Sequence record: PV018828
Strand: one strand, 5' to 3'
DNA: 64,000 nucleotides
DNA from: Escherichia phage YW01
Below the pieces are notes generated by a model. The model was not told the origin of the DNA. It did not search any database and saw only the letters and a program-made list of their open reading frames with translations. This document shows, in pieces, positions 59,393 through 61,355 of this stretch. The position numbers were made by a program, and so were the translations under genes. Every line of letters begins with the position of its first letter. Position 1 is the first letter of the stretch.

Positions 59393-60204
59393 CTTTCAAT
59401 TGTAAGGGCGCTATTGCCCCGCTCTCTATGAGCTTGTTTAAGTCACTATTAACTTAACTATAACCACTCGTTGTTAAGTAGTTATAGGTAAGCGGGGCGG
59501 TCTTATCAGGAGTTAACCTTGCCGCCCCCTTATCCGTGATGTTTCATCTGGTATCTTTAATTAGTCGCTATAAACGAAGCCGACCTGATAGCGATGATCA
59601 ATCATCACAATAAGGCAGTGCGTCCGACTCTAATTAGTTACGTTATTGTAACCGTCGGCAATATCGTTTACTTTGCTTTCGCTCTCGCCTATCCTTTTAT
59701 ATCAACTCTCAATCGCTAGTCATCGCCCACTACGGGATACTATTGCGAAAGAGTCATTGACCGTCTAATGTTCCGACGTTTTATCTCTTTCGGCAAGTTT
59801 ACTACATAAACCGACTATGTACTTTCATCATAAGATGAATCTCAAGCCGTTCACATTGTAAACGTTCACACTAAACCTTATTGTTAAATAGCAATTTGCC
59901 ACTTTTTAACCACTCCCCGCCGCTCTCAATTGAGCGTTAATTCGTCGGGATTGCCTACCCTGATTAACTTCTTTCACTGTAGCACCGTGTTAGCAATGAC
60001 CGCCGCTACCCTTAACCGTGGGCGATTAGCTCAAGTCTTTGCGTGTACTCAATGAATCCGTTTATCAATGGTGACGTTTCCAGTAAGGGAATGTAAAACT
60101 GTTTACCCTGATAATTTAGGGAGTTTTACGCCGTTTTATCTGGTATGCTTTCCGATGGTTATTATCATCAAGCATATTCAACCGATATAGGAGAATGTTT
60201 AAAT

Positions 60205-61148
60205 TATTAAAGAGCGGTAAATCTATCAGTGTGCTTTCTCACACTATGCAACTGTTAGCCGTTGTTACGCTTTTCACTGAAGCGATGATTTGCTTAGTGA
60301 GTGCTCATTATGAATCATGTTGTTTTCGCTGTCAACCGCTTTTTAATCTTTTTCGTCGTTCCCGCTATTGGGAGGATATATCAATCAGCTTTATTTGATT
60401 GAAGATTAAGCGGTGAGGCTTAACTTATGACTCATATTGTTAAAGAGCGTTTAGCCTTTTAAAGTGTCTGCTAATCACTGTCACATTGAAGGCTTACTGA
60501 TTCATTAACAGGCCGCCTACACCTGAACTAATCGCTGCACTATGTGCCACCTTTCCCGCGATACGTTGATTTGGGAACTAGTTAGCGATGTTTTGCTAAC
60601 TTGTGGTTAGTATGGACTACTTTAACCACGTTTGCAACTCTTTTTATCATCTTCTTTTAATTCCTTTCCCTTATCTCGCGTGAATCTATGCGAAAGGGCA
60701 AGATGATAAGTCTGATTTGTCTTTCAGGGAATCTAGTGCGCTTTCAAGCATTAATCTTTTGAAAGTATCGAACAAATAAGGCTTATTGATATTGCTTATT
60801 GTCCGCCTGCGTCACGTATGAATCAGGAATCAATTCTACCGATTAACTGAGCGCCTTATAGTAATGACGTCGCCGCCACCCGTAAGACAAATCATATTTT
60901 TAAAGAGCGGGATTTTTTTAAGTCATCGCTGACTATGCTCACTATATATCAGGCTGTTTTCGGTGTCAATACTCTTTTTAAGAATATTTTCACTTTCTAG
61001 CCTGATTTTTAAAGAGCGGGGCAAGTTTCCTTGCCTTGTATGTTTTACATCGTACCCGATGAAATGAAGTATACATTAATCAGTGAGGGATGCAATAGGG
61101 TAAAACAAAATATTTTAAACTTTTTCACTATAGGAAGGTAAAAGAGCG
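60205..61148. repeat. five dispersed copies of (T)TTAAAGAGCGG(G) motif within ORF-free region
   Basis: Copies near 60205, 60443, 60897, 61008 and 61139. Confidence 0.5.
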
Positions 61149-61251
61149 GGCGAACGTGATACATCATAGGAAAAGGCTTGTAAAGCGATAACAAGCGGCC
61201 TATAACGCATCACAATGAGCTAAAAGGGAGTAAGGTATACAATCACCTTAG

Positions 61252-61279
61252 AAAAGAAAAAAGCCTCATAGCGAGGCTT
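61252..61279 (-). terminator. intrinsic terminator at right edge of non-coding region
   Basis: Minus-strand AAGCCTC-gctat-GAGGCTT followed by TTTTCTTTT. Confidence 0.65.
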
Positions 61280-61355
61280 ATAGGAAGGATTTAAAGCATC
61301 AGATAGATTATGACCATAGGCATGACTACGGCACAATACAGGAGAAAGATTAAGC

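Follow-up and report, generated by a model that had tools for sequence, protein, structure and literature searches.

A candidate rrn-type boxA array and a large structured leader RNA in the proposed early control region of an Escherichia phage

The ORF-free island and its repeated boxA motif

In the 64,000-nucleotide (nt) window analyzed here (the whole stretch of DNA under study, from Escherichia phage YW01; PV018828), the interval 59393-61355 forms an island that has no open reading frame (ORF) of at least 80 amino acids (aa) in any frame and is, as the initial annotation had noted, the longest such stretch in the window. A search with this 1,963-base-pair (bp) island retrieved 97 phage records, including phiEco32, with Escherichia phage SkaterBoy_Bas90 as the best match (99.9%); by its sequence, the window belongs to a phiEco32-like podophage of the Kuravirus group (Gordonclarkvirinae). 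The island corresponds in both Bas90 and phiEco32 to an unannotated gap between the homologs of phi32_124 (window 58484-59383) and phi32_125 (61356-61721), and most of the related GenBank records listed likewise have nothing annotated in this gap. The gp124 and gp125 homologs are on the minus strand, as are all the genes annotated within several kilobases (kb) on the left side and ~3.5 kb on the right; hence, the island must be read from right to left. On this sense strand there is no ORF of at least 30 aa across 59393-60923. What the island holds instead is an array of short motifs matching the boxA antitermination signal of the ribosomal RNA (rrn) operons, alternating with promoter matches and followed by an RNA of ~800 nt with a conserved fold.

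The initial annotation had reported five dispersed copies of TTAAAGAGCGG in the island. These are indeed present as three exact copies (60207, 60900, and 61009) and two copies with one mismatch (60440 and 61139), all on the plus strand and within 943 bp; with at most one mismatch the motif occurs seven times in the window against 0.98 expected, and none of 100 shuffled sequences reaches seven. It had, nevertheless, been taken on the wrong strand: on the gene-sense (minus) strand it reads CCGCTCTTTAA(T/C/A)AAT, which is recognizable as the rrn-type boxA antitermination signal. The gamma-proteobacterial boxA consensus is GYTCTTTAANA, with UGCUCUUUAACAA as the E. coli rrn form (Baniulyte et al., 2017, PMC5725501). 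Four copies match this consensus perfectly, all on the minus strand and within 813 bp, viz., boxA1 (60205-60215; GCTCTTTAATA), boxA2 (60438-60448; GCTCTTTAACA (ACGCTCTTTAACAAT)), boxA3 (60898-60908; GCTCTTTAAAA), and boxA4 (61007-61017; also GCTCTTTAAAA), and the match extends three bases (N-A-A) past the 11-mer originally described. Over both strands of the window there are five perfect matches to the consensus, against 0.57 expected and with 0 of 100 shuffles reaching five, the fifth being antisense and inside a late structural gene. The four perfect copies also match TGCTCTTTAACAA of the E. coli rrnB leader, which, as fetched, reads ...GCCGCTGAGAAAAAGCGAAGCGGCAC-TGCTCTTTAACAATTTATC..., that is, the boxB hairpin and then boxA; boxA2 has a 12-nt core, GCTCTTTAACAA, in common with this leader, and the identity to rrnB reaches 18 nt in relatives (GCTCTTTAACAATTTATC). 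The three-U boxA of the rrn operons binds NusB-NusE more tightly than the lambda form (CGCUCUUA), and the phage copies carry these three U's. The remaining copy of the five originally listed (61139-61149, minus strand; CCGCTCTTTTA, core GCTCTTTTACC) has a single mismatch to the motif as first described and misses the boxA consensus at two positions; the same degenerate form is seen in ECBP2 and NJ01.

Ten relatives were compared with the window (phiEco32, SU7, NC-B, LAMP, ECBP2, KBNP1711, Bas93, NJ01, EK010, and Bas88; 11 phages in all). A comparison of this kind had been suggested in the initial annotation as a check on the motif, and it finds four to five perfect boxA copies in each of the ten, all of them gene-sense and none antisense. 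They all lie inside the annotated gap, except for a fourth match of SU7, which falls inside an annotated ORF of 66 aa, and 18 consecutive nt that include boxA1 are identical in all 11 phages. The flanking cassettes are 20-80% conserved with many indels, whereas the boxA core is exact; such poorly conserved, indel-rich linkers argue that the core itself is kept by selection.

Two other stretches of the island resemble or complement boxA. Within the structured RNA, 24 consecutive nt that do not vary among the 11 phages include a near-boxA sequence, GCTATTTAACAA (59882-59893, minus strand). This sequence departs from boxA at position 4 alone, a position that mutational work has identified as critical, and shares 82% identity over 22 nt with the boxA2 region (repeat family D3). 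Shortly before the gp124 ribosome-binding site, where the leader ends, the minus-strand RNA UAGAGAGCGGGGCAA (59414-59428) is complementary to the 5' half of boxA together with its CC prefix (CCGCUCU); with the boxA4 region its complementarity is 93% over 15 nt. This may reflect an anti-boxA pairing or have arisen by chance.

Promoters and the promoter-boxA cassettes

A cluster of early promoters was among the roles offered for the island in the initial annotation, and near-consensus sigma-70 promoters are in fact found on the minus strand. The one at 60941-60969 (TTGACA-17-TATAGT; 11 of 12 consensus positions) would place boxA3 at about +25 from the inferred transcription start; the one at 60307-60335 (TTGACA-17-CATAAT; again 11/12), with an inferred start at ~60300, is present in all the relatives. 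Both are predicted early promoters of phage SU10, the former being identical to the promoter at SU10 position 73996 and the latter to that at SU10 position 73511 save for one base downstream of the -10 element; the predictions in the SU10 genome paper (Table S2) were made by analogy with phiEco32, and the early promoters of the spacer are already in the literature. The two promoters are paralogous (82% identity; repeat family D2). A weak sigma-70-like promoter upstream of boxA2 (60610-60638, minus strand; TTGCAA-17-CATACT, 8/12) was read by eye and is below the threshold of the promoter scan, and in Bas93 a TTGACA-17-CATACT promoter stands ahead of the corresponding boxA. The candidate promoter feeding boxA4 is of a different type: the element TAATGTATA, which the initial annotation had placed at 61070-61078 on the minus strand, is there exactly, as one of five exact copies in the window, and might serve as a middle/late promoter for gp36. 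The promoters of this phage sigma factor have a single element, tAATGTAtA, 6-8 nt upstream of the start. In 3 of the 11 phages, namely the window's own, KBNP1711, and ECBP2, TAATGTATA occupies the 61070-61078 position of the gap; the gaps of the remaining eight relatives, phiEco32 among them, hold no exact copy. Elsewhere in the window, two exact copies, at 21932-21940 (minus strand) and 22004-22012 (plus strand), lie 64 bp apart on opposite strands in a divergent arrangement; the minus-strand one fits the position of a known middle promoter, and the plus-strand one is not in the SU10 promoter table.

In sense order the layout thus runs from a terminator through the degenerate boxA, TAATGTATA, a hairpin, boxA4, a sigma-70 promoter, boxA3, the weak promoter, boxA2, a sigma-70 promoter, and a hairpin to boxA1. 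All the boxA copies are sense to the minus-strand genes and each is behind a promoter match, and the alternation of boxA with near-consensus sigma-70 promoters (matching at 10-12 of 12 positions) recurs in all ten relatives. The distance from the -35 element to the motif varies from ~50 to >170 nt over a linker that is not conserved, yet the core of 11-15 nt is exact. Only boxA1 and boxA4 have a hairpin directly on their 5' side, boxA2 and boxA3 being without an adjacent one. The hairpin of boxA4 (61020-61035, minus strand; GGCAAG-GAAA-CTTGCC), read from the sequence, ends 2 nt before the boxA, and GGCAAgaaaTTGCC or GGCACttaGTGCC is found ahead of boxA copies in relatives. That of boxA1 (60227-60246, minus strand; TAGTGTG-agaaag-CACACTG), 11 nt upstream of the motif, is helix 3 of the consensus fold described below and shows compensatory changes in relatives, with both sides changed in 3 of its 7 pairs (GC/AU; UA/CG/AU) and the variants AGTGTG/CACACT, AACGTG/CACGTT, AGCGTG/CACGCT, and GAAGTG/CACTTC.

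The part of the window from 60450 to 60633, ~200 bp, is otherwise present only in ECBP2 and KBNP1711-like phages; phiEco32, LAMP, and NJ01 have in its place a TTGACA promoter that immediately precedes boxA2. Evidently, the cassettes have been exchanged or replaced among relatives. Two other features of the motif were considered as well. ACTATG does follow two of the plus-strand copies, as the initial annotation had recorded, 25 nt on (60243-60248) and 21 nt on (60932-60937); it was rejected as a common downstream element because its sense-strand contexts differ (a transcription-start region in one case and a hairpin flank in the other), and its co-occurrence with the motif looks incidental. 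A role for the motif on the plus strand as a promoter element (-35-, sigma-28-, or sigma-54-like) was discarded too, there being no consistent spacing to any -10 element.

The structured leader RNA and the flanks of the island

Among the earlier proposals for the island were non-coding RNAs, and the evidence here goes further than that proposal, to a structured RNA of ~800 nt supported by covariation. The interval 59384-60430 is 85-95% identical per 50 nt among the 11 phages, against 77-92% for the adjacent gp124 coding sequence, and even the SU7-like phages, whose gp124 protein is only ~79% identical, still match the leader part. The minus-strand RNA from the inferred start at ~60300 to the gp124 start codon has a predicted folding energy of -284 kcal/mol (z = -8.35; single sequence). 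The RNAalifold consensus of the 11 sequences has 264 pairs, of which 68 show changes on both sides, against 29.3 +/- 3.1 compensatory pairs in shuffled alignments (0 of 500 reach 68) and 4-12 when the partners are slid. The proportion of paired cells (98.2%, versus 93.3% in shuffles and 34-46% with slid partners) and the covariation score (0.222, versus 0.121 and 0.04-0.06, respectively) point the same way. The consensus fold has an energy of -255 kcal/mol for the minus strand, as against -188 kcal/mol for the plus strand, and G-U accounts for 11.7% of the paired cells against 0.5% for A-C; this lower minus-strand energy and the great excess of G-U over A-C identify the sense (minus) strand as that of the RNA. 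As a control, the gp124 coding sequence from the same phages, with a similar number of variable columns, yields 12 compensatory pairs and -100 kcal/mol, versus 54 pairs and -240 kcal/mol for the leader on the control's alignment.

The fold begins, on the minus strand, with a multibranch domain I of ~300 nt (59905-60203), which comprises helices 6-19, many with compensatory changes, and is closed by the helix 60203-60190/59918-59905. A hairpin (59904-59886) and then domain II (~280 nt) make up the interval 59607-59904; the latter domain is closed by an invariant 10-bp helix (59884-59875/59616-59607). The interval contains helices 20-32, among which the long-range helix 25 covaries at 6 of 6 pairs. 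Eight hairpins (helices 33-41) occupy the 3' part of the leader (59405-59606), one of them being GGGGCGG...CCGCCCC (59528-59494) and another a 10-bp hairpin that covaries (59487-59458). In the outermost predicted helix AUUUACC, just 5' of boxA1, pairs with the gp124 Shine-Dalgarno sequence GGUGAAU; both strands are near-invariant (one G-U to A-U change), so that this helix has no covariation support. Rfam 15, with its models of group I/II introns, 6S RNA, RNase P, and the large RNAs GOLLD, ROOL, HEARO, and OLE, has no match in the region at gathering thresholds, and at E-values up to 10 only seven weak matches of 14.8-21.6 bits, far below threshold, were obtained; nor did blastn find a host homolog of the RNA in 5,426 E. 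coli genomes. Our leading guess is that this RNA serves both as the leader of gp124 and as a stable non-coding product, folded as it is transcribed.

The locus has a narrow distribution. Searches by tblastn with gp124 and at the DNA level found it only in ~98 E. coli/Shigella Gordonclarkvirinae records, and the five loci in IMG/VR appear to belong to known Kuravirus-group genomes. A 19-mer scan of metagenomes returned eight true homologs (87-95% identity) and 10 chance matches, and the same scan of genomes returned six chance matches only; these eight metagenome contigs are all that was found outside the ~98 records.

Past the leader, the first gene is the gp124 homolog, whose Shine-Dalgarno sequence (AAAGGTGA) and ATG (59381-59397, minus strand) are placed by the sequence and by the annotation of Bas90 and phiEco32; gp124 has no Pfam family and no PDB relative, and its PHROG is one of unknown function. 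Intrinsic terminators had been claimed on both sides of the island. The right-hand one stands: on the minus strand at 61261-61279, AAGCCTCGCTATGAGGCTT is followed by a T-run (stem AAGCCTC-GCTAT-GAGGCTT, then TTTTTCTTTTC), which is the terminator of the SU10 supplementary table with two loop differences and would end the upstream early operon (the gp128-gp125 homologs). The left-hand hairpin, at ~59405-59420, lacks a T-run, and no terminator was called there. The gp125 homolog (61356-61721, minus strand; 121 aa) carries a "terminase" label in many records and in PHROG 13168; as the gene is located in an early operon and has no Pfam match, this label looks like a propagated annotation. A hidden small gene in the island was considered and rejected: the sole ORF of more than 50 aa (60195-60398, plus strand; 67 aa) is antisense, overlaps boxA1 and the promoter, and spans sites at which relatives have indels of one and two bases. 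No genes for transfer RNA (tRNA) or transfer-messenger RNA were found in the island; the window has just one tRNA gene, for tRNA-Arg(TCT), at 52679-52754 on the minus strand, the strand of the early and middle genes.

A possible rrn-style antitermination system and its relation to known systems

We propose that the main early operon, transcribed from right to left on the minus strand, is controlled from this island, and that the boxA array probably lets the host polymerase transcribe the structured leader and the long early operon without termination. The array would consist of three or four tandem cassettes, each with a promoter and a boxA 25-190 nt downstream and two with a hairpin just 5' of the boxA; the promoters in the window would be two strong sigma-70 promoters, a weak sigma-70-like one, and one matching the gp36 consensus. 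By extension from the rrn operons, lambda nut sites, suhB, and CRISPR arrays, we infer that a nascent boxA would bind host NusB-NusE (S10) and nucleate a Nus complex with NusA, NusG, and SuhB on the host RNA polymerase, making elongation fast and Rho-resistant. The polymerase so modified could then cross 0.8-1.7 kb of untranslated RNA and enter the long leftward operon of early genes. The final cassette (the promoter at 60335-60307, its hairpin, and boxA1), which is conserved in all the phages, would drive the leader of ~800 nt (59405-60203) up to the gp124 ribosome-binding site. The order of promoter, hairpin, boxA, and large folded RNA appears to copy the layout of an rRNA operon. Since a phiEco32-like phage relies on the host sigma-70 polymerase for its early genes, this dependence together with the 0.8-1.7 kb of untranslated RNA would give antitermination an obvious use. 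The rrn antitermination complex has also been described as an RNA-folding chaperone, a role that would fit a large fold directly downstream. If this proposal is right, the locus would represent an rrn-style, N-independent boxA antitermination system in a virulent phage, coupled to an RNA without an Rfam match.

Several points weigh against this proposal. The activity of the promoters is argued from consensus matches and second-hand literature, and the sequence 3' of the boxA copies shows no evident GU-rich element resembling boxC. C-rich, G-poor stretches for Rho loading are absent from the leader; given this and its heavy pairing, it may be an intrinsically poor Rho substrate, which weakens the need for boxA in crossing it. 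In some contexts, e.g., suhB and hisG, boxA can even promote Rho termination. In the mature fold boxA1 is itself predicted to pair with a downstream sequence, AUUAAAGA (helix 5), so that any Nus binding would have to be co-transcriptional. As for precedence, the searchable literature contains no paper in which boxA and phiEco32 occur together and no account of the boxA array, the boxA identity, or the structured RNA; Savalia 2008 and Pavlova 2012, which lie outside that search, may describe part of it.

The number of copies invites another explanation, in which the boxA sequences mainly titrate NusB, NusE, and SuhB away from the host rrn operons and so help to shut off host rRNA synthesis, with polymerase modification being secondary. 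Multiple high-affinity rrn-type copies whose U at position 8 favors NusB-NusE, placed behind near-consensus promoters, would suit such a sponge, as would the retention of four to five copies in all the relatives when one per transcript suffices for antitermination. Against this, there is one boxA per promoter, as is predicted if each initiating polymerase is modified in cis, and the same design of one promoter and one boxA recurs in the pre-early operons of T5-like phages (see below). Titration is hence compatible with the copy number without being needed to explain it, and we consider it unlikely to be the main function. The resemblance to boxA might also be coincidental, the motif being merely the conserved, initially transcribed part of a duplicated promoter cassette; any function that the motif had would then lie in promoter escape or in stability of the 5' end. 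The paralogy of the two strong promoters (family D2, 82% identical) and the shuffling of cassettes among relatives lend this some color, but it sits poorly with an exact core at variable distances from the promoter beyond an unconserved linker, and with the presence of one copy behind a candidate promoter of a different type, TAATGTATA; as a chance 11/11 match to a host RNA signal, four times over, would also be very improbable, little weight can be given to this explanation.

The leading idea of the initial annotation, an element acting at the DNA level as origin iterons or as operator sites for a phage or host regulator, drew on the presence of five copies of a short motif in a long non-coding stretch, and the origin of phiEco32-like phages has not been located in the literature examined. 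However, the copies in all 11 phages share one direction, that of the transcribed strand, with each downstream of a promoter, and they match the RNA boxA consensus in full, including the N-A-A beyond the 11-mer. An iteron-bearing origin in particular is contradicted by the single orientation, the irregular spacing (233, 460, and 109 bp), and the lack of an AT-rich unwinding region: the G+C fraction of the island is 0.39-0.41 against ~0.42 for the genome, with no inflection in the cumulative GC skew. Such a DNA-level role is thus highly improbable, and the idea of regulator-binding sites survives only in a changed form, with NusB-NusE on the RNA as the likely ligand in place of a protein on the DNA.

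A similar promoter-boxA design in other phages counts in favor of the antitermination proposal. Among viral contigs fetched with boxA 15-mers only those with clusters were examined further; single 15-mer matches in IMG/VR are at chance level for a library estimated at ~100 Gb. Several of the contigs have three to five same-strand consensus matches, and two are T5-like phages. Proteus phage Stubb (NC_048086) has four boxA copies at record positions 4811, 4899, 5601, and 5776 in its terminal repeat, sense to the pre-early genes A2/A1 and each 16-22 nt past a promoter of the TTGACA-17-TATAAT type; Pectobacterium phage My1 carries four in its left terminal repeat, all on one strand, and T5 has one at record position 4988. 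The matches of these phages are perfect and sense to the pre-early A2/A1 operon inside the terminal repeat. That cassettes of this kind occur in the first-step-transfer DNA of T5-like phages suggests a general principle. In Salmonella phage 7-11 no sense-strand boxA was found in the last 30 kb. This distant relative has an ORF-free leader of ~1 kb (28865-29917 of the stretch examined) upstream of gp151, its first early gene. It is possible, though we hold this only tentatively, that promoter-boxA cassettes are general in virulent enterobacterial phages dependent on the host polymerase (the Kuravirus group and T5-like pre-early operons), and that the fold described here is a new class of large phage non-coding RNA made by an "rRNA-operon mimic" and having an early trans-acting function of its own. 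Strong promoters, a boxB-like hairpin, and boxA would in that case recruit a Nus complex acting as both antiterminator and folding chaperone, and the RNA might be a scaffold or decoy for host machinery, or might prime or activate a replication origin.

How phiEco32-like phages drive a leftward gene cluster of ~45 kb from few promoters has so far been unexplained, and the authors of the 7-11 study state that the antitermination strategy of that phage "remains to be defined". A boxA after each early promoter would be a concrete and easily testable answer: if it is correct, phiEco32-like phages, including Bas88-Bas93 of the BASEL collection, should be sensitive to nusB, nusE, and suhB defects and to point mutations in boxA. 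A large covarying RNA in culturable E. coli phages with a tractable host is rare among large ornate RNAs and makes such studies practical. The "empty" 2 kb, blank in most of the related records, is among the most constrained parts of the genome.

In its size (600-800 nt for the known examples), multibranch form, phage link, and unknown function, the leader RNA resembles GOLLD, ROOL, HEARO, and OLE; unlike these, it has no Rfam match above noise, occurs in a single clade of E. coli/Shigella podophages only, and is fused as a leader to an mRNA. The early region of T7, with its tandem sigma-70 promoters A1, A2, and A3 before gene 0.3, is likewise a cluster of strong promoters for the host polymerase in a non-coding stretch that precedes the first early genes. 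The T7 leader is a few hundred nt long and has RNase III sites, as against the 800-nt covarying fold seen here, and we know of no boxA array in that phage. The lambdoid nut sites offer a parallel in that their boxA is a phage-borne one, placed in early transcripts for a processive host polymerase, and has a C before the core (CGCUCUU...). Lambda boxA (CGCUCUUA), though, is missing the third U and binds NusB-NusE more weakly, in contrast to the rrn-type copies with three U's found here; its boxB hairpin, bound by N, is 3' of boxA and not 5' of it as in the present array; and the lambdoid phages are temperate whereas the phiEco32-like ones are virulent. The three-U, rrn-type boxA and the 5' hairpins rule out a lambdoid nut site, though an N homolog was not searched for.

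The boxA elements of CRISPR arrays and of the suhB leader (Stringer 2020; Baniulyte 2017, PMC5725501) likewise use the consensus outside rRNA, for Rho control on a long untranslated or leader RNA; they are single chromosomal copies, as opposed to an array in a virulent phage with strong promoters of its own. The closest counterpart is the E. coli rrn leader, with its P1/P2 promoters, boxB hairpin, boxA, and boxC, and its NusA, NusB, NusE, NusG, SuhB, and S4 proteins. The phage differs from it in having no recognizable boxC, in having four to five promoter-boxA units against two promoters and one leader boxA, in including one cassette with a candidate phage-sigma promoter, and in that its RNA of ~800 nt is unrelated to rRNA and runs into protein-coding genes. 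What the two have in common is an identical boxA core, GCUCUUUAA(C/A/U)A, with U at position 8, a hairpin that directly precedes boxA (in the phage, boxA1 and boxA4), tandem strong sigma-70 promoters, and, downstream, a large structured untranslated RNA whose long-range closing helices start beside boxA.

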